This document shows, in pieces, positions 6,600 through 50,330 of a stretch of 64,000 nucleotides of DNA; the first letter of the stretch is position 1; every line of letters begins with the position of its first letter. The stretch lies in contig NC_087245.1 in assembly GCF_037042905.1 (NCBI RefSeq), positions 13,828,001 through 13,892,000 of the forward strand. The letters are read 5' to 3'. Origin of the DNA: Lytechinus pictus. Its lineage: Eukaryota. A program made the position numbers and the translations under genes. The notes beneath the pieces are model-generated. The model had not been told where the DNA came from. It saw only the letters and a program-made list of their open reading frames with translations, and ran no database searches.

Positions 6600-8433
6600 G
6601 AACATTCTGCTTGAGTTTCAGGTCACCTGGCCAAGGTCAAAGGTCATTTAGGGTCGATGAACGTAGACCATGTTGGGGGAATCAATATCAAAATCTTAAC
6701 CAAGGTTAAGTTTTTGAAATGTTGTCATAACCTAGAAAGTATATGGATCTAATTCATGAAACTTAGACATAAGGGTAATGGTGTATCACTGAAGATCCTG
6801 CCTGAGTTTCAGGTCACATGACCAAGGACAAAGGTCACTTAGGGTCAACAAACTTTGGCCATGTTGGGGGTATTTGTGGAATCGACGTAACTTACAAATT
6901 TTATGGATTTAGTTCATGAAACTTGGACATAAGAGCAATCAAGTGTCCCTGACCATCCTGTGCGAGATTCAGGTCACATTACCAAGGTCAAAGGTCATTT
7001 AGGGTCAACAAACTTTGCTAATGTTGGGTGTATTTGTGGAATTGTCATAACTTTTAAAGTTTATGGATCTAGTTAATGAAACTTGGACATAAGAGCAACC
7101 ATGTATCCCTGAATATTCTGCACGTGTTTCAGGTCACATGACCTAGATCAAAGGTCATTTAAGGTCAAAGAACTTTGGCCGTGTTGGGGGTATTTGTTGA
7201 ATTGGCATTATAACTTGTTAAGTTTATGTATCTAGTTCATGAAACATAGACATAAAGGTAATCAGGTATCAATGATTGTTTTGCACATGTTTTAGGTCGC
7301 ATGATCATGGTCAAAAGTAATTTGGGGTCAATATAGAATTTTACTCATATGAATGATTTGTTTTGTGAATAATTATTCAATAGCTGTTTTTGTCTCACCT
7401 GCATAGCAGAGTGAGACTATAGGCGCCGCTTTTCCGACGGCGGCGGCGACGGCGACGGCGGCGGCGGCGTCAACACCAAATCTTAACCTGAGGTTAAGTT
7501 TTTGAAATGACAGCATAACTTAGAAAGTATATGGACCTAGTTCATGAAACTTGGCCATAAGGTTAATCAAGTATTACTGAACATCCTGCCTGAGTTTCAT
7601 GTCACATGACCAAGGTCAAAGGTCATTTAGGGTCAATGAACTTAGACCATGTTGGGGGAATCAACATCAAAATCTTAACCTAAGGTTAAGTTTTTGAAAT
7701 GTCATCATAACTTAGAAAATATATGGACCTAGTTCATGAAACTTATACATAAGGTTAATCAAGTATCAATGAACATCCTGCTTGAGTTTCACATCACATG
7801 ACCAAGGTCAAAGGTCATTTAGGGTCAATGAACTTTGGCCGAATTGGGGGTATCTGTTGAATTACCATCATAACTTTGAAAGTTTATGGATCTGATTCAT
7901 GAAACTTGGACATAATAGTAATCAAGTATTACTGAACATCCTGTGCAAGTTTCTGGTCACATGATCAAGGTCAAAGGTCATTTAGGGTCAATGAACTTTG
8001 GCCAAATTGGGGTATTTGTTGAATTACAGCCATAAATTTGAAAGTGTGTTGGTCTAGTTCATAAAACTTGGACATAATAGTAATCAAGTATCACTGAACA
8101 TCCTGTGCAAGTTTCAGGTCACATGATCAAGGTCAAAGGTCATGTTAAGGTCAAAGAACTTTGGCCACGTTGGGGGTATTTGTTGAATTGCCATCATATC
8201 TCTATAAGTGTATTGGTCTAGTTCATAAAACGTGGAAATAAGAGTAACCAAGTTTCACTGAACATCTTGTGCGAGTTATAGTAGTTTTCAAAATCAGCAC
8301 TGCTGCTATATTGAATCGCGTGATGCAGGTGAGACGGCCAGAGGCATTCCACTTTTTTTTTAAGTCGGCACAGCTGCTATATCGAATCGCATAATGCAGG
8401 TGAGACTGCCAGAGGCATTTCAATTCCACTTGT
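6600..8433 (+). mobile_element. Older Helentron/DINE-like element (5' end lost), interrupted by a younger copy at 7387-8355
   Basis: Tandem ~160-190 bp units (ccaaggtcaaaggtcatttagggtcaa) from ~6600 to 7386; its 3' end (atgcaggtgagac...ccacttgtt) resumes at 8361-8433. Confidence 0.75.
7387..8355 (+). mobile_element. Helentron-associated (DINE/HINE-like) non-autonomous element with central tandem array
   Basis: 5' TTTTT, subterminal IR GTCTCACCTGCAT (7392-7404) paired with ATGCAGGTGAGAC (8323-8335), 5' hairpin GTCTCAC..GTGAGAC, (GGC/GAC)n microsatellite, four tandem units, T-run insertion site with no TSD. Confidence 0.8.
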
Positions 8434-19160: not shown

Positions 19161-19462
19161 ATACCTTAATGAGTATATCAAATCCATTTAGCACTTAGTA
19201 ATGGAAAAGTACAGGCTGACCTTCGACTGATCTTTACAGTTCTATAATTATTTATTCTTACTTATCCAAAAACATAACATGTTTTCGAGATTTTTGAGAT
19301 TTCAAAAGAAGTTTTCATGGTATCAGACTGTTATTTTTCTACACACCCTCACGAGACCATTTTACCAAACTTATCACTAGTCCATGTATTATAAAGGTGG
19401 GTATTTTCCGTCTAAATTAGGGTGGCATCCACTAAGCTCGGCCTTTCACTTATCAATAGCAG

Positions 19463-21494
19463 TTTTTGTCTCGCCTGCATAGCAGAGCGAGACTATAGGC
19501 GCCGCTTTTCCGACAGCGGCGTCGTCAACATTGAAATCGGAACCAAGGTTAAGTTTTTGAAATGTCATCATAACTTAGAAAGTATTTGAACCTAGTTCAT
19601 GAAACTTGGACATAAGGGTAATCAAGTATTACTAAACATACTGCCTGAGTTTCAGGTCACATTACCGAGGTCAAAGGTCATTTAGGGTCAATGAACTTAG
19701 ACCATGTTGGGGGATCAATATCGAAATCTTAACCAAGGTTAAGTTTTTGAACGTCGTCATAACTTCTAAAGTATATGGATCTAGTTCATGGAACTTGGAC
19801 ATAAGGGTGATAGTGTATCACTGAAGATCCTGCCTCAGTTTCAGGTCACATGATCAAGGTCAAAGGTCACTTAGGGTCAACGCACTTTGACCATTTTGGG
19901 GTATTGTGGAATTGTCATAACTTTGACATTTTATGGATCTAGTTCATGAAACTTGGACATAAGAGCAATCAAGTATCCCTGAACATCCTGTGCGAGTTTC
20001 AGGTCACATGACCAAGGTCAAAGGTCATTTAGGGTCAACGAACTTTGATAATGTAGGCGGTATTGGTGGAATTGTCATAACTTTAAAGTTTATAGATCTA
20101 GTTCATGAAACTTGGGACATAAGAGTAACCAGGTATCCCTGAATATCTTGTGCTTGTTTCTGGTCACATGAACAAAATCAAAGGTCATTTAGGGTCAGTG
20201 AACTTTGGCCGTGTTGGGGGTATTTGTTGAATTGGCATCATAACTTAGAGAGTTTATTGATCTACACATGAAGTTCATGAAACATAGACATAAGGACAAT
20301 CAAGTATGAATAATTGTTTTGCACAGGTCTTAGGTCACATGATCATGGTCAAAGGTCACAGTCAGTCTGCAAGCCCCTATGTTAATGAGCAAATGAGCAA
20401 GTCCTCCCGTGGCCGAATTCATATCCCTACAAAATCTCGTGAATTGTGAGACTTTTTTCTCAAAGAATTTAACCATTTTCTCCTTGAGTAAAATTGATTA
20501 TTTTTGTACCATATGAAAGAGTAAATGTTACTCTTTAATATTAGTTATGTCTTTTGAATAAAATATTTTGATAAATAGGTAAAATTCAGGCCTGAAAAGA
20601 GGCCTCAAACATAGTTTTTTTCCTCTATTTTCTCTTGCAAATTGTGCAAAATTTTGTGTTTTGGGCACAAACATTTATATCATCAGAAAGCTCAAACTCT
20701 CTACTTTCATACAATATCACTCTTGATATGTGACACCTTTTAGATGGGTCAGCAGCCAGCCTTTTCCATCAAGATGCAAGACGAGATTTCTGAAATTTCT
20801 GAGTAGCATAAAATCTAGAGTTCTGATTGGCTGAATAATGTTTTCAAAACAACAGGCGCGGGTAATTTGAAGAAATTACCACATGGTGAGTGTGACCTTC
20901 AGAGGCCCAGTGTGGGGAACATTGGAATTTGCGTGGGTGTGTGGTCTCTATGACCAATCAGAGCGCAGTATTCTTGTTTTTTAGCTGCTAAATGTACTTG
21001 GCCTATAAAAAACTGGCTGCTGACCCATCTAAAATACCTCTTCTTATAAAAGTTATATCATATTAAAGCTTAGATCTTCAGCTTTATCATAATCTAAAAA
21101 TCATTTGTGCTCAAACAGTAATTAAGGGTAAAAACAACATTTTTTGTTGCATGAAAATAATTATTTTGTTTCATGATTTAGATAAAAAATTTCCCCTATA
21201 TTACAACATCTTTTTAAAAATTCAAACACATGACCTGAAAGAATGATTTTTCTTCTTTATAAAGCTCATTAACAATGCAAAACCACTCTTGTCATGAATA
21301 TCACTTGGATAAAAGAAGCCACTTTTTGAGGGCTTGCCGACTGACTGGTCATGTTGGGTCAATGGACATAGTATTTCATTATCATATGAGTGTTTTCTTT
21401 TGTGAATAATTATTTAAAAGCTGTTTTCAAACTCAGCACTTCTGCTATATCGACTCGCGTAATGCAGGTGAGACTGCCAGAGGTGTTCCACTTC
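19463..21494 (+). mobile_element. Helentron/DINE-like element, full length, interrupted by a MITE
   Basis: Same 5' box (GTCTCGCCTGCATAGCAGAGCGAGAC), tandem units and 3' end (atgcaggtgagactgccagagg...ccactt) as 7387-8355. Confidence 0.8.
20359..21347. mobile_element. TIR element with 4-bp TSD (GTCA), superfamily unresolved
   Basis: GTCA|CAGTCAGTCTGCAAGCCC ... GGGCTTGCCGACTGACTG|GTCA; removing it restores the host consensus aaaggtcatgttgggtc; internal IR ttttagatgggtcagcagccag / ctggctgctgacccatctaaaa. Confidence 0.85.
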
Positions 21495-21614: not shown

Positions 21615-22280
21615 TCGCTGTTCCAACGGCGACGGCGGCGTCGTCAACATCAAATCTTCACATAAGGTTAAGTTTTTTTAATGACATCATAACTTAGAAA
21701 GTATATAAACCTAGTTCATGAAACTTGGACATAAGGTAATCAAGTATTACTGAACACCCTGCCTTGGTTTCAGGTCACATGACCAAGGTCAAATGTCATT
21801 TAGGGTCAGTGAACTTAGACCATTTTTGTTTTGTAGTAGTCTTTATTATTCATTCAAATAACATTCATACATACATGATCAAGGAAATATAAAACAAAAT
21901 GATAATAATTGCAGCTGTAATAAACACAAATCAAATTACACTGTAATAGACATAGCAGGCAAATTGTATCGGAACAGTGACATAATCCGAAATCATGCAA
22001 AAATAAAATTTCAATAATATGCAGCTAAAGCAAATAAAAAAATAAGGTCAAAGGTCATTTAGGGTCAATGAACATTGGCCATGTTGGGGGTATTTGTTGA
22101 ATTACCGTCATAACTCAGAAAGTTTATGGATCTACACATGTAGTTCATAAAATATAGACAAAAGGGTAATCAAGTATGAATGATTGTTTTGCACATGTCT
22201 TAGGTCACATGGTCATGGTCAAAGGTCATGTTGGGTCAATGGACATAGTATTTCATTATCATATGAGTGTTCTTTTGTTA
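21615..22280 (+). mobile_element. Truncated Helentron/DINE-like copy with an internal foreign insert (~21824-22043)
   Basis: ttccaacggcgacggcggcgtcgtcaac start plus the same tandem units. Confidence 0.7.
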
Positions 22281-28155: not shown

Positions 28156-28265
28156 TAACGTAGGCATCACAGTCAATAAACAGACGCTTGATGACGGCTT
28201 GACGATTCCTACTTTACGGTTTGCAGCGTTGCAGCGTATAAGCAGTATCAACGCCAAAATTAAAT

Positions 28266-29248
28266 AACAAGTGGAATGCCTCTGGCCGTCTCACCTGCAT
28301 CACGCGATTCAATATAGCAGCAGTGCTGATTTTGAAAAACTACTATAACTCGCACAAGATGTTCAGTGATACTTGGTTACTCTTATTTCCACGTTTTATG
28401 AACTAGACCAATACACTTATAGAGATATGATGGCAATTCAACAAATACCCCCAACGTGGCCAAAGTTCTTTGACCTTACATGACCTTTGACCTTGATCAT
28501 GTGACCTGAAACTCGCACAGGATGTTCAGTGATACTTGATTACTATTATGTCCAAGTTTTATGAACTAGACCAACACACTTTCAAATTTATGGCTGTAAT
28601 TCAACAAATACCCCAATTTGGCCAAAGTTCATTGACCCTAAATGACCTTTGACCTTGATCATGTGACCTGAAACTTGCACAGGATGTTCAGTAATACTTG
28701 ATTACTATTATGTCCAAGTTTCATGAATCAGATCCATAAACTTTCAAAGTTATGATGGTAATTCAACAGATACCCCCAATTCGGCCAAAGTTCATTGACC
28801 CTAAATGACCTTTGACCTTGGTCATGTGACGTGAAACTCATGCAGGATGTTCAGTGATACTTGATTAACCTTATGTATAAGTTTCATGAACTAGGTCCAT
28901 ATATTTTCTAAGTTATGATGACATTTCAAAAACTTAACCTTAGGTTAAGATTTTGATGTTGATTCCCCCAACATGGTCTAAGTTCATTGACCCTAAATGA
29001 CCTTTGACCTTGGTCATGTGACATGAAACTCAGGCAGGATGTTCAGTAATACTTGATTAACCTTATGGCCAAGTTTCATGAACTAGGTCCATATACTTTC
29101 TAAGTTATGCTGTCATTTCAAAAACTTAACCTCAGGTTAAGATTTGGTGTTGACGCCGCCGTCGCCGTCGCCGCCGCCGCCGCCGTCGCCGTCGCCGTCG
29201 GAAAAGCGGCGCCTATAGTCTCACTCTGCTATGCAGGTGAGACAAAAA
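28266..29248 (-). mobile_element. Helentron/DINE-like element, near-identical to 7387-8355, inserted in an LTR
   Basis: Reverse complement aligns end to end with 7387-8355; inserted in the A/T run of the LTR without a TSD. Confidence 0.85.
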
Positions 29249-31209
29249 CAGGCAATACCAGGCGAGTATAGGAACGAGATGTGTGTTTAATTAAAAGCTA
29301 GCGGCCAAGAGACCGATCGCTAATCGAACAGGAATATCGATAACAGTTATAATCGATTAACAACATTTACAACAACAAACCATAATTATAAACATTATGG
29401 CGTGGCTAATTTCCTTTGTTTCTTTTCTCCATAAAATCACAATACTAGTAGTAAACCATTTTAAAAGAACTTTTAAACTTAACATCCAAACTGACACGAT
29501 ATATATTTTCCTACAATCCCAAAACACTAATGGTTGAATACAGCAATCAACAACCTATATCATTAACTTCTCAAATCTTATCTTGGTTAAAGCCACTTAG
29601 ATGAAACAGTCTAACTTTTCTAACATGTCTTGTACATATTATAACAACATATTTTTATGCATAAAATCAATTCAATAAACTGTGATTATGAAACAATGTA
29701 GATGTATGCCTGACACGTATAATTTACCACCAACATTAAAAATTAAATCCATAAACATGTATAACAATAGACCCACTAAACAAAACCAATTGTATTTCCA
29801 GTACACTCTCTAAGCATCTATTTCTGTGTATTTTTTCCTTTTTCCGTAAGCTGTTAAATCACAATAAAAATACAATCGTATTACCGTAACAGTAATATAC
29901 CCAATACATTCCAATATGATATTGATGCAGAAAGCGGATTTTCTTCAAAAGCACATACCAATTATCAATATCTCCATCAATCAATTACATGCACTAAAAC
30001 ACATCACTACAAAATACATCATTAAATATAAACGTAAAATAAACACAGTAAAGCATGTAAGAAGTATAGTCTTCGACGTATTATACAATCAAACAACTTC
30101 ATAATAATAATGAATTTCTGTTATTCTTATACATACACTAATATCACCGCTTTTTATTCCTCTTTCTTCAAGATAAAAAAACAACCTGTAGCATGATGAA
30201 TCAAATAAACAAAGTTAAGGCACTCGTACACTCTGTCACAATTACTACCAATACAACGGCAAAAACAAAACAAAACAAGAATCATCATCACAATCCAAGT
30301 CAAGGCTAACACCTTACATTCATGAAAACACAATTTACGACTTAAACAAAACTATGGAGCCATGCAATATGATATCGGTCTTGCCGCCAAATCCAAAATA
30401 CGGTGTCACTCTTTGATGCACAATAAAAAGCATTGTAACAAAATATGGGAGTATGACAAAATGGAAATGAAAGTAAACATGAAAAGGACATATCAGCAAA
30501 ACTATGTTCCTTAATTATCGTCAATATGAAAAACACATGATAAACGAAAAATGCAATAATGATCCATCAAAGTTAACATGATTGTCATCTCAAAATTCAC
30601 GTAAAATGGTCTCTAGTAGTGCAAAGCAATAACTCCTACATCTCTCTGATCTGTGTAACAGGTAAAGGGGAATAAACAGCTAAAAAATTCATAAGATCGT
30701 GAAAAGACAGAAAACCATGAAAAACACAAGTTATTAAAAATGAAACGATAACCACCATACCTGCAAACCAAGTGGGAGCACACTGCACTTCTCAACCACA
30801 CTGCATTCAAACAACCACATCCATTCGAACCAAGCAAAGGGAGCAGGTACAATTTCAAAGCCAAGCACATACATCACATAAAACAAACAACCGGGTGTAA
30901 CTGTATATCAAAACAAAGCATTACAATCGACCAACCAAGCATTACACAACTGTCATAAACCTTCATAAATGACACTCTATAAAAAAATGAAAGAAAATAT
31001 GAAGAAATCATGAACTCTCAAGCACTGTAGTCAAAATCCTATAATGTGTAATAAAATCAACATGGAAAAAATCAAACAATTACATACGAACATGATTATA
31101 CACTGTGTAAACAGAGTCCAATTGATGAGGCATTAGGGGGGCTTAAGAGCTTGATGGGGCGGCAAGGCATGCATTAGGGGAGGATGAGGCCACGAATGGG
31201 GGCTACAGT

Positions 31210-33088
31210 TCAGGGTACACGACTCTGGAGAGGATGGTTGTCTGCCGTACTGAAAGAGCCTGACCAGATCCAAAAGGCGTCTCTCCATGATGGGAAGTTG
31301 GGACCAAGGGTAGTTGGATAGGTTGCTGCACTGCGGGGGCCCAGAGGCTGGAAGGCAAGTACGTCACTTGCAATGGTATTGTAGGAAATTATCACATGAT
31401 ACCTAAGATGGGACCTACCAAGAGTAGCATGGGATATGGGGGACACTACATACGGACAGAAAGGGTCATGAGTATCAAGGGCTCTCATCATCAAAGGGAT
31501 GGGGACATCTATAGTAGATGGCAACTTGTTGGATCGGACGCCGACATCGACAGGCGGCTGGGGGTCCGGTGATCGAAGCATCAACATCTGAGTAAGATGA
31601 AAAATCTAAGTAATTGGTGGGGGCATCTACATCTGCTGGTGGTTGGTAGCGAAGGGTATCTACATGCATCTGTGGGAGGTGGGACATCTAGGTAGTTGCC
31701 ATGGGCATCTATATCTGATGGTGGTTGGTGAGTGTTTATGTCATTGTCACAAACATTGATGGTAGCTAGTTGATGATGGGCAGATGTGTGACTATCTGCT
31801 ATGTTGATGGCATGTAAGTGGGACTGAATTGTAGTGTGTTGGTGCTCCAGCCCTGGGTAGCTATTGGGCTCTGTGTGACTAGTGGTAAGTGGAGGGGTAG
31901 CCTGTGATTGACTGATGCCTGAGGTTGTGTGTGTCACTGTGTGAGATAGTTGTTGCTATGTGGTAGCGTTTACACTGCCGACATTATCGATCTGTAAATT
32001 ATCACAATAAAACGAGCAAGCGCATTTCGTCACGCGGAACGGGCAAGCACATTTCGATACACAGAACGTGCGAGTCGTTACGCGGAATGATCGAGCGTGT
32101 TACGTTTGACTCGTGTGTATCCGTCATGAGCAAATTGTTAACCGAGGCCGAGATGTTTACGTTGCCGAGCGATTTGTTGCTGCACGAAGTTGGTGTGCAA
32201 GGCTCAGACGTGAGTAGATCACTTTCTTCATTGTTACTGAGAGTGGGGCAGATGTTATTTTGCCCCGACAAATTGTCACACGATCCTGTATGAGTAGCCC
32301 TAAAACTAATAAAACTACTCTCAACACTATTCCCTGAAGTGAGATGAGCATCACCATGGCAACGCAAATTGCCAGTGAAACCAGAATGAATATGAGAAGA
32401 TTTAACCTCTTCAGACTCGGGAGAATCACTAAGGATGGGCCTACTACCACTACCAGATGAGCAAGGCTCATCATACAATGCATTCAAACTCTCACCAGGA
32501 AGGTTTTGCTCGGTAACCCTAATAACGGGTACCAGTCTAGATTCATGCACCACAGATTTTGAACAATCATCATTTTCATCGTATTAAAAGATTGCATTGT
32601 TACTGAAAATAATCTGATGCCTTGAAGGTCTTACCATGATGTCATTGTCTTCCATGAAAGGTGACCCAGCCACAATACCAACATCTTCTCCGACAACAAT
32701 TCCAAGATATTCCATTTTGACACCACTGCTGAACAGACTAAAGTATGAATAACCTACGACATCATACTTGATATAAATTTACTCTATCCATCTCGTACAC
32801 ATCATATATTGCTTGTTCATCAATAACAAACTCCAATCTTAATTCATCAATTATGTTCTCACCAATCATATTAATTTCACTCCCACTCTTCAATTCTACT
32901 CTTATTTTCCTTTCATCATCATGATCAAGATTAGCATAGAAGTAAGGAGGTGATTTCTTACCAGTTTTAACACTAGGGGCTGACTGCACTCTCGAGTCAG
33001 AAACTGATGAACGGGAGCACAGGAGCGGCTCCCCGGCAAAACTAACCGCAACGCCCTCTGGCGAAGCGATGCCCTTGGCCACAGGCAT
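31210..33088 (-). pseudogene. Disrupted retropepsin-like region plus low-complexity ORF of the LTR element
   Basis: KKSPPYFYA...RVELKSGSEINMI, then after a frameshift YDVVG...DVGIVAGSPFMEDNDIMVRPSRHQII, resembling invertebrate gypsy-type proteases; followed by Ser/Thr/Pro-rich frames with QPPADVDAPTNYLD-like repeats. Confidence 0.55.
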
Positions 33089-33146
33089 ATTACAACACAG
33101 TCATCAATATGCAAAGAGAGAACCAGTCACCGTAAGTACAACGGAA

Positions 33147-33264
33147 CAGGGGCGTCGATCCATTATTTTTTCAGATGGGGGGGGGGGGCAAAATCATGAA
33201 TCAACGTTCCAAATGCGCTCGATCATACAAACCAAACAACCTCACGCACACACACACACACATA

Positions 33265-33295
<31 letters not shown>

Positions 33296-33955
33296 GACTT
33301 TTGAGATACCGACACGTATCTCACCAACAAATTAATGCGAGTGCGAAGCGCGAGCTGAATTTTTTTTAGTATACTGACCTTAAAACAGGAAAAGGGTACC
33401 TGTTTAGGACAAAAATTTCTTTATATTCTGACCTGAAAGCTTGATATTCTAAGCATTATTGGTACCAATGATTAAGATTGGTATCTAAAAGAACAATAGA
33501 TGCGAGCGCGAAGCGCGAGCTGAAAATGTTGATATTTCGATCTGAAAAAATTTTACAGTTAATGGACGTTTTTGATAAAGAACAAGCTATATATCCAACA
33601 AAAGATTATTGCAAAGCGAAGCGGGAGTTCCTTTTGAGGTTTAGCACTGAAAACGGGACATTCTATTCACATATTTAATCATGAAAAGTATGGGTTTTTG
33701 CTACAGAAATGATGCGAGCGCGAAGCGCGAGCTGAAAATCTTTATATTCCAATCTGAAAAGCGGACATTTTGAGAACGATTGAAATAAAGAACGAGTCGT
33801 GTATCTCAATCTCGCTTGCTGAACATTACAATCTTATTTTATTTTTGCACATCCGGAATTATTGGGGGGGGGGGGCAAAACGATATGTTGGCCCCCCCCC
33901 CAATATTTTCATCGGTGGGGCGATCGCCCCCCCCCCCCCAGGATCGACGCCTCTG
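33147..33955. mobile_element. hAT MITE
   Basis: TIR CAGGGGCGTCGATCC / GGATCGACGCCTCTG; perfect 8-bp TSD CAACGGAA. Confidence 0.92.
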
Positions 33956-34024
33956 CAACGGAACGCCTGGCCCTCAGAATATAGGCTTGATTACCTGTAG
34001 CCTGGGTGGTAAGAAAACTATATA

Positions 34025-34635
34025 CCGTATGGGTACTAGTATTCAACCTGGCATAATTCAAAGATTTTGACATATTCCCCAAAATATTTAGAAATGGGGA
34101 ATTTATCTTAATTTCACACCTTTGTTATTTCCAGGGTAATCTGTTGTCGATATTTTCTTTGTCAATCTGTCGACTGTATGCGCGGAGGGTCGAATTATGC
34201 GGCGATGGCCTTTTGCACTGAATGGTACTAGTATTCAACCTAGTGAGGATTGATAGCAAATCTCAAAAGGGTTTAGATTGCTAAATTAGATCTAGATCTA
34301 TGTAAGTCTCTGGCTTTGATTAATTCCCTGTTTGGTCTCATCTCAAATGGTCTAGTCCATAGTCGGATGGGACAAGGGTAGATTGAGAGACAGGGCCATC
34401 ATTCATTGCTAGGTTGAATACTAGTACCGACGGGTTGAATACTAGTACCAAAATCCGTCGCCGTATAATTCGATCGCCCGTGCACACAGTCAACTGGTTG
34501 AAGAAAAAAATAACGGAAAAAGAATAACCAGCATTTGCTCTTGGAAATAAGACGGGTCTGAAATTCAGGTAAATTCTATATTTCTATATATTTGAGGAAA
34601 CTCTCCAAACGGGTTGAATACTAGTACCCTTACGG
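34025..34635. mobile_element. Tc1/mariner-type MITE
   Basis: TA|CCGTATGGGTACTAGTATTCAACC ... GGTTGAATACTAGTACCCTTACGG|TA; the GGTACTAGTATTCAACC motif occurs five times. Confidence 0.88.
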
Positions 34636-34849
34636 TAGGCCCTCAGTCCGAACCACGAGCTGCCACCACGCCAAAGTTATATAAAAACAGGCAATACCAG
34701 GCGAGTATATATAGGAACGAGATATGTGTTTAATAAAAAGCTAGCGGCCAAGAGACCGATCGCTAATCGAACAGGAATATCGATAACAGTCATAATCGAT
34801 TAACAACATTTACAACAAACCATAATTATAAACATTATGGCGCAATGTA

Positions 34850-50052: not shown

Positions 50053-50330
50053 ATTGCCTGCAGAGACAGGGCGCCGCTTTTTCCGACGGCGCCGCGCGGG
50101 CGGCGTCGTAAACATTGAAATCTTAAAACAGGATAAGTTTGTGAAATGTAATCATAAGTTTGAAATAGGCCTACAGGTTTTTATAGCTATCATGAAACTT
50201 AGAAATAAGGGAGTCAGTGAAAATCCTATAGTGAGTTTCAGGTCATGCCACGGTCAAAGGTAATTTAAGGTCAATGAACTTTGGCCAATGACGTTGGGGG
50301 CATTTATTGAATTGCCATCATAAATCAACA
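50053..50330 (+). mobile_element. Degenerate Helentron/DINE-like fragment
   Basis: ggcgccgctttttccgacggcg...gtcaaaggtaatttaaggtcaatgaactttggcc. Confidence 0.6.

Follow-up and report, generated by a model that had tools for sequence, protein, structure and literature searches.

A decayed non-autonomous Troyka element in the sea urchin Lytechinus pictus and the dead protease domain conserved among its relatives

The window analysed here is a 64,000-nucleotide stretch of Lytechinus pictus DNA (RefSeq assembly GCF_037042905.1, contig NC_087245.1, positions 13,828,001 to 13,892,000). It contains a long terminal repeat (LTR) retroelement at positions 28252-34842 of its minus strand. We assign a probability of about 0.8 to the reading that this element is a decayed non-autonomous Troyka copy, probably moved by the enzymes of full-length Troyka elements, and that it carries the broken remains of a gene for a dead protease, whose intact counterpart in related elements has docking on the protease of those helpers as its favoured role. 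The window copy itself is now inert. Coordinates below are positions in the window, the strand of the element is minus, and L and C labels denote loci and copies in the searched genome, G000. The element and its parts are as follows.

28249-28251, no strand: left target-site duplication, CAA (TTG on the element strand)
28252-34842, minus strand: whole LTR element with CGCCA...TGGCG ends
28252-29402, minus strand: 3' LTR, split into an outer 14 bp (28252-28265) and the rest (29244-29402, ending TGGCG), with ATTAAA at 29286-29291
29403-31100, minus strand: T-rich (42% T) non-coding 3' region, ending in a purine tract and a 7-nt spacer that ends CA
29410-29430, minus strand: purine tract, 7 nt before the 3' LTR
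31136-33126, minus strand: decayed long frame in several pieces, a retropepsin-like domain (about 32584-32962) followed by a low-complexity tail
34659-34668, minus strand: primer-binding site TGGTGGCAGC, 10 nt, adjoining the 5' LTR and complementary to the 3' end of tRNA-Leu(TAG) with CCA
34669-34842, minus strand: 5' LTR, 174 bp, CGCCA...TGGCG, with ATTAAA at 34729-34734
34843-34845, no strand: right target-site duplication, CAA

An earlier note on this DNA, made from its letters alone, had described a Troyka-like non-autonomous element with two direct repeats of about 175 bp that run from CGCCA to TGGCG, CAA on both outer flanks, a tRNA-Leu primer site next to the 5' LTR, a purine tract before the 3' LTR and ATTAAA within the LTR. 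All of these features are found at the positions listed, and the left repeat is indeed split 14 bp from its edge by a Helentron-like insert of about 978 bp (approximately 28266-29243). The LTR pair aligns with a BLAST E-value of 8.5e-68. Its 170 aligned bases contain 5 substitutions, 3 of them within 156 bases and the other 2 within the outer 14, and there are two indels, one of 4 bp and one of 3 bp. The median LTR identity of its relatives is 99.4% (50 pairs, 19 of them identical), and thus the window copy is older than most of them. The interior measures 5266 bp, including two miniature inverted-repeat transposable elements (MITEs). Both this interior and the 174-bp LTR fall within the sizes given for Troyka elements (about 1.5-7.7 kb and 100-400 bp), and both window LTRs have the 5'-CG...CG-3' ends of the group, which are mostly CGCCA...TGGCG.

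The anatomy recurs across the genome. The junction of LTR end and primer site, GGCG followed by TGGTGGCAGC, occurs 75 times and its reversed control 0 times, which indicates that the junction is not due to chance. Sequence was fetched for the 74 other junction loci, and a partner repeat was found in 55. After removal of one inverted artefact, 54 pairs remained, and 19 loci had no partner within 9.3 kb. Both LTR starts are complete in 45 pairs (9 incomplete ones were dropped), and of these 45 relatives 44 are flanked by a 3-bp duplication and none by one of 4-7 bp. Their outer start is CGCCA in 42/45 and their outer end TGGCG in 42/45, where the start call relied on a filter for CGC-type motifs and the search pattern itself set the inner end. 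The TG...CA ends with 4-5-bp duplications that the earlier note had named as refuting its reading did not occur. The canonical Gypsy, Copia and BEL arrangement of TG...CA ends with 4-6-bp duplications does not describe these elements, whose repeats stop at CG. Twenty further loci chosen by protein search yielded 17 complete pairs, and a 3-bp duplication was seen by eye in 16 of them. For one relative (L099), RNA reads from two runs of one study (5 and 7 reads) carry an empty-site allele that is 4509 bp shorter net, equal to the 4506-bp element plus 3 bp.

Reverse transcriptase (RT), RNase H and integrase are all missing from the window element, as the earlier note had reported, and tblastn with two full-length Gag-Pol proteins matches only the protease region (E-values of 2e-8 and 5e-8). 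However, its interior is not empty of coding sequence, since a broken protease-like gene had been overlooked there, along with the two MITEs. Pol-bearing Troyka copies of the same genome, here called helpers, were first found by a search with a Gag-like piece. They have a single Gag-Pol frame of 1636-1715 amino acids with a CX2CX8HX4C knuckle, a protease with DSG, an RT with LADD, RNase H and integrase. This is the Gag-Pol layout of Troyka elements (a CX2CX8-10HX4C knuckle, the order protease, RT, RNase H, integrase, and an I/V/LADD motif), whereas the window copy has the protease-derived piece alone (E-value of 2e-8), as would be expected of a non-autonomous member. Helper LTRs read CGCCA...TGTCG or CGCCA...TTTCG and have 3-bp duplications. 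Copies with RT and integrase that share the element's ends, which the earlier note had proposed to seek, are thus present as far as the CGCCA start is concerned, but they end in TGTCG or TTTCG instead of TGGCG. At least 35 RT matches were found, in two main groups, and the nearest named relatives of the helper RT are from Nematostella, Ptychodera, Acropora, Porites, Mytilus and Haliotis (71-76%).

The window's protease-like domain has a lysine at the site of the helpers' catalytic aspartate and an acidic segment in the flap region. It contains a frame change and is followed by a stop, with more breaks in the tail. In 28 of the 54 short elements a frame of at least 600 amino acids starts near the primer site. 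The intact frames of these relatives are 600-1100 amino acids long and consist of a retropepsin-fold domain and then a low-complexity tail; after the stop comes a T-rich non-coding region of 1.1-1.9 kb, with the composition of the window's 3' region. No second frame was found after the stop in ten elements (the longest spans 50-92 amino acids). Pfam yielded no family past its cut-off in 19 frames from short elements and window pieces, and the link to proteases was established by alignment with helpers. The tails, compared with 85 full-length proteins, matched no helper domain beyond Gag or protease.

Loss of the catalytic residue is general among the short elements. The aspartate is absent in 38/38 short copies, which have K, R, V, H or F instead, and present in 7/7 pol-bearing copies, a count that covers the 45 of 71 elements in which the site could be called (26 could not). 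It is likewise absent in 20/20 readable database homologues and present in 76 of 85 full-length homologues, with 9 unread. Neither the window copy nor these short copies thus have the Asp-Ser/Thr-Gly triad of an active retropepsin. The serine after the lost aspartate is invariant in 14/14 alignment rows, the acidic insertion in the flap region occurs in all but the L084 family, and 27 columns of the domain are invariant across ten diverged rows. An AlphaFold2 model of the intact sister domain from L099, built from an alignment that included two helper rows, has a mean pLDDT of 75 (43-75 over five models). This model matches the Ddi1 retroviral-like protease (Foldseek E-value of 3.8e-7, TM score of 0.66) and retroviral proteases, and an Atlas search agrees. 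Thus, the intact sister domain is predicted to adopt a retropepsin fold.

In a tree, the C-terminal piece of the window domain falls on a long branch within a 32-row clade without the aspartate (support 98/98). The L084 family, which keeps a zinc knuckle, also has a long branch; the values of 83/70 neither establish nor reject a single aspartate-less clade that includes it, and the tree cannot distinguish one loss of the residue from two. Homologues with the same layout are found in L. pictus (which may come from this very genome and are not independent evidence), L. variegatus, Diadema setosum and 17 ENA records. Matches to the domain in the genome number at least 103, versus at least 35 for RT. 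Three raw RNA runs, 6% of each, gave 34, 48 and 21 reads on L099, mostly at its flanks and in the flanks' direction.

Selection was assessed with one pair from each of six families. The domain has 72 synonymous and 54 non-synonymous differences, for a ratio of non-synonymous to synonymous change (pN/pS) of 0.22 (0.00-0.35 per pair, the closest pair having only two changes). In neutral simulations under four mutation models, 0/24000 runs reach 72 synonymous changes of 126 (maximum 60). The domain is therefore under purifying selection in these sister families. Both members of each pair lack the aspartate and share the tail, which means that the constraint acted after the residue was lost. The tail has a pN/pS of 0.70, compared with 0.84 in the neutral simulation. 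Indels in multiples of three make up 49/80 in the tail versus 79/325 after the stop, a comparison biased by the choice of open copies.

In a second class of short Troyka elements (L117, L126, L142 and L160-L163), the long frame has the opening 130-190 residues of Gag where the others have the dead protease; a similar tail and a T-rich 3' region follow. Selection on this class is weak or unclear (dN/dS 0.42-1.16).

The duplicated target also has a preferred form. Over 44 sites (L070-L142), the duplication has T as its central base in 31 cases, A in 13 and never C or G, for a chance of about 8e-10 at 62% AT. The symmetrised profile favours C-W-G, and TTG, the window's own duplication on the element strand, occurs in 6/44. 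At the inner junctions of the 45 complete elements, the 3' LTR is preceded by TCA in 40 and TTG in 5, and by CCA in the window copy, while TG follows the 5' LTR. Unprocessed ends would therefore read CA/CG...CG/TG, where the slash marks the LTR boundary. At one locus (L093, on C4 near 27025500), two junctions of LTR end and primer site from different families lie face to face, 152 bp apart.

When the genome was searched with the window LTR (34669-34842) and the termini and flanks were tabulated, as the earlier note had advised, six other LTR matches at five loci were recovered, plus a satellite; the interior gave 22 matches. All are fragments, 66-95% identical. Their outer junctions are GTG/CGCCA, TGGCG/CTG (twice) and TGGCG/TAA, and none extends to TG...CA. 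The junctions of LTR and interior recur in the C2, C3, C8 and C12 copies, whose partner LTRs were not found in the stretches fetched, and no second copy with both LTRs was recovered. The flanks of the window copy matched few of the loci compared. The satellite is a 49-bp tandem repeat made from LTR positions 7-71 and lies at C27:414952-421949 and C9:227787-235127 (L009-L030, L191, L194-L195), with about 80+32 and 88+32 copies and 93-97% matches. It occupies the expected 3' LTR place of a decayed family copy, with interior pieces next to it, and the two places may represent one duplicated region. Two other LTRs of the family (L005/L007 and L008) are each split near the same place by a tRNA-like short insertion.

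The proposed tRNA-Leu primer was compared with the tRNA set of the species, and the 10-nt site of the window (34659-34668) matches the genome's tRNA-Leu(TAG) genes. A pattern search for the tRNA 3' end gave 65 matches, and ARAGORN calls tRNA-Leu(TAG) in 2 of 10 loci tested. None of the 65 ends in AGCTGCCA, which would lengthen the site to 11 nt. Beyond the 10 nt, after a 2-nt mismatch, looser pairing with the primer is predicted for the window copy. Among 71 elements, most families have 10 nt that pair perfectly with tRNA-Leu, then a T; 18-19 nt are kept in 5/71, and some elements, including one pol-bearing family, have mismatches inside the first 10 nt. At two loci (L112 and L131), for which no partner LTR was found within 9.3 kb, complementarity to tRNA-Leu continues for about 55 nt, past the T and variable arms and as far as the anticodon arm, which gives the impression of a copied primer.

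The window element carries three younger nested insertions.

About 28266-29243, minus strand: putative Helentron-type non-autonomous (HINE-like) insert, about 978 bp with approximate ends, with subterminal repeats GTCTCACCTGCA, a 5' hairpin, a GC-rich microsatellite, internal repeats of about 160 bp and a T-run target
33147-33955, no strand: MITE with 15-bp terminal inverted repeats and the 8-bp duplication CAACGGAA (33139-33146 and 33956-33963)
34025-34635, no strand: MITE with inverted repeats CCGTA(T/A)GGGTACTAGTATTCAACC and a TA duplication

From the lengths and kinds of their duplications, we tentatively take the first MITE to be hAT-like and the second to be Tc1/mariner-like. Neither is present in the window family's C2 and C12 copies. 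The Helentron-type insert is 97.6% identical to a copy at window positions 7384-8363, and more copies of the same repeat family lie at 6600-8363, 19462-20307, 21635-22253 and 50100-50288. HINEs are described as having subterminal inverted repeats, T-rich targets without duplication, internal repeats and a 3' palindrome (PMC4067079). In the insert, subterminal repeats, a T-run target and internal repeats are seen, and its 5' hairpin is supported (z of -3.8); however, its 3' end folds no better than shuffled sequence (z of 0.03), which leaves the palindrome unsupported.

General knowledge of retroelement biology suggests how such an element would be copied in trans by helper enzymes. Helper Gag-Pol would package its RNA, tRNA-Leu would act as primer at the 10-nt site, and the purine tract would serve as the start of plus-strand synthesis. 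The symmetric CA/CG...CG/TG ends would be trimmed after CG by the integrase of the helper and joined over a 3-bp stagger that has A or T at its centre. Dimerisation is obligatory for retroviral proteases, and the hydrogen-bond network of their triads, known as the fireman's grip, is part of what holds the dimer together (PMC8537868). The dead domain might pair with the protease domain of helper Gag-Pol through its sheet and the kept, dimer-forming serine, and so bring its own element's RNA into helper particles. We tentatively favour such docking, with a benefit in cis to the element's own RNA, because a gain to that RNA is the easiest explanation of why a mobile family would be under selection. 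A broader version is held a little less firmly: these may be an old class of sea urchin Troyka satellites, spread over Lytechinus and Diadema, in which a helper protease became a pseudoprotease adaptor that forms dimers with helper Gag-Pol and so boards or tunes the helper's particles.

Other readings of the same data were weighed. If the two repeats were independent insertions of a short sequence, or the ends of an ordinary Gypsy element that had been miscalled, then it might be expected that both LTRs are present only in the window copy of its family, as is the case. However, the primer site and the purine tract sit on the proper inner sides, the junctions of LTR and interior recur in four other copies, and 44/45 relatives share the anatomy. 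With the 75 versus 0 junctions and the partner repeats, this candidate is ruled out and retains a negligible probability. Two further ideas concern what the dead domain does. It could act as a brake or tuner, whereby inactive heterodimers slow the processing of Gag-Pol, and a diluted protease favours assembly for both partners or limits the copy number of the helper. The single Gag-Pol frame of the helpers (also PMC12440569) fits this idea, as do the loss of the aspartate from a domain that keeps its fold and serine, the acidic segment in place of the flap region, and the greater number of short elements than helpers. Yet copies that lack the gene would profit from a benefit in trans as well, which makes it a less ready explanation of the selection on a mobile family than a benefit in cis, and we consider the brake rather unlikely. 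Alternatively, the long frame may be kept for the sake of the RNA, with translation shielding the transcript from decay and the domain serving as a stable folded start that binds nothing of the helper. The tail is nearly neutral but stays in frame, subject to the open-copy bias noted above, and the gag-type families share the layout with a different head. This explanation seems more doubtful still, since five pairs have a domain pN/pS of 0.05-0.35 and 27 columns are invariant, which is more constraint than keeping a frame open requires, and 1.1-1.9 kb of non-coding RNA still follows the stop.

Several points weigh against the docking reading and its extension to the window element. Docking calls for an RNA-binding part that is not evident in most families' protein (19 frames without a Pfam family past cut-off). 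The gag-type families L142 and L160 multiply without the protease domain. The strong selection signal comes from the sister families and not from the window's own, in which comparison with the C2 copy gives a weak signal (domain, 10 synonymous versus 13 non-synonymous differences; tail, 13 versus 46), and both the pN/pS and the indel test relied on pairs drawn from copies with open frames. For the 3-bp duplication of the window family, the window copy is the single source. In addition, the window LTR shares only terminal bases with the helper LTRs, which end in TGTCG or TTTCG rather than TGGCG, and the LTR comparison does not pin down a particular helper.

As an element, the window copy adds one dead example to the Troyka elements of sea urchins, and the point of interest would be the cargo of its relatives. 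Non-autonomous LTR elements are usually treated as passive RNA, whereas at least six of the families here have retained, under selection, a protease domain that is catalytically dead. Beside this conserved cargo stand the identical LTRs of 19/50 pairs and one insertion (L099) that is absent from alleles in reads. The system offers a testable case of how retroelement parasites exploit a helper, and may bear on protease balance in an element with a single Gag-Pol frame. If the pseudoprotease adaptor is real, it would represent protein-based hitch-hiking among LTR retrotransposons. The A/T target centre and the CA/CG...CG/TG ends provide constraints for the unstudied Troyka integrase. Also, dead-protease frames appear in sea urchin annotations as host genes for an 'uncharacterized protein'.

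Much of the anatomy has precedent. In the main text of Kojima (2025, PMC12440569), Troyka LTRs begin with CGCCA in 573/603 and end with TGGCG in 522/603, measure 100-400 bp, flank interiors of 1553-7691 bp and are accompanied by a 3-bp duplication. Of 70 Troyka elements that are non-autonomous, 62 are from Echinoidea, and these elements apparently encode no functional Gag-Pol. The window element is the same in ends, duplication, LTR size, interior size and absence of a functional Pol. The TGTCG and TTTCG ends of the helpers are variants given there for a sea urchin lineage, and the cnidarian, hemichordate and mollusc relatives of the helper RT belong to phyla in the host list. The terms 'PBS', 'tRNA', 'primer' and 'polypurine' do not occur in that main text, and no dead-protease frame, selection on one or A/T preference at the target centre was seen there; the supplements may hold the same families. 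Literature searches for a dead-protease cargo found no relevant paper, with those supplements outside their scope. Kuafuorterviruses, as described by Gong and Han (2024, PMC11673190), include Troyka and have LADD as their RT motif. The helpers share with them the order protease, RT, RNase H, integrase, the LADD motif and a length of 5-6 kb, and because that survey was based on RT, it is blind to RT-less elements such as the window copy.

The plant TR-GAG elements (PMC4350172) are likewise short non-autonomous LTR elements with a single frame. Theirs encodes Gag, whereas the frame here encodes an aspartate-less protease domain and a low-complexity tail; the L142 and L160 families, which carry part of Gag, are closer. 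The predicted fold of the intact sister domain resembles those of the Ddi1 retroviral-like protease and retropepsins (PDB 5yq8, 3s8i), but the Troyka domain lacks the catalytic aspartate, has an acidic insertion in the flap region and is carried by a mobile element. What has been published before (PMC12440569) comprises the ends, the 3-bp duplication and the large number of non-autonomous copies in sea urchins; the conserved dead-protease gene is the less ordinary part.

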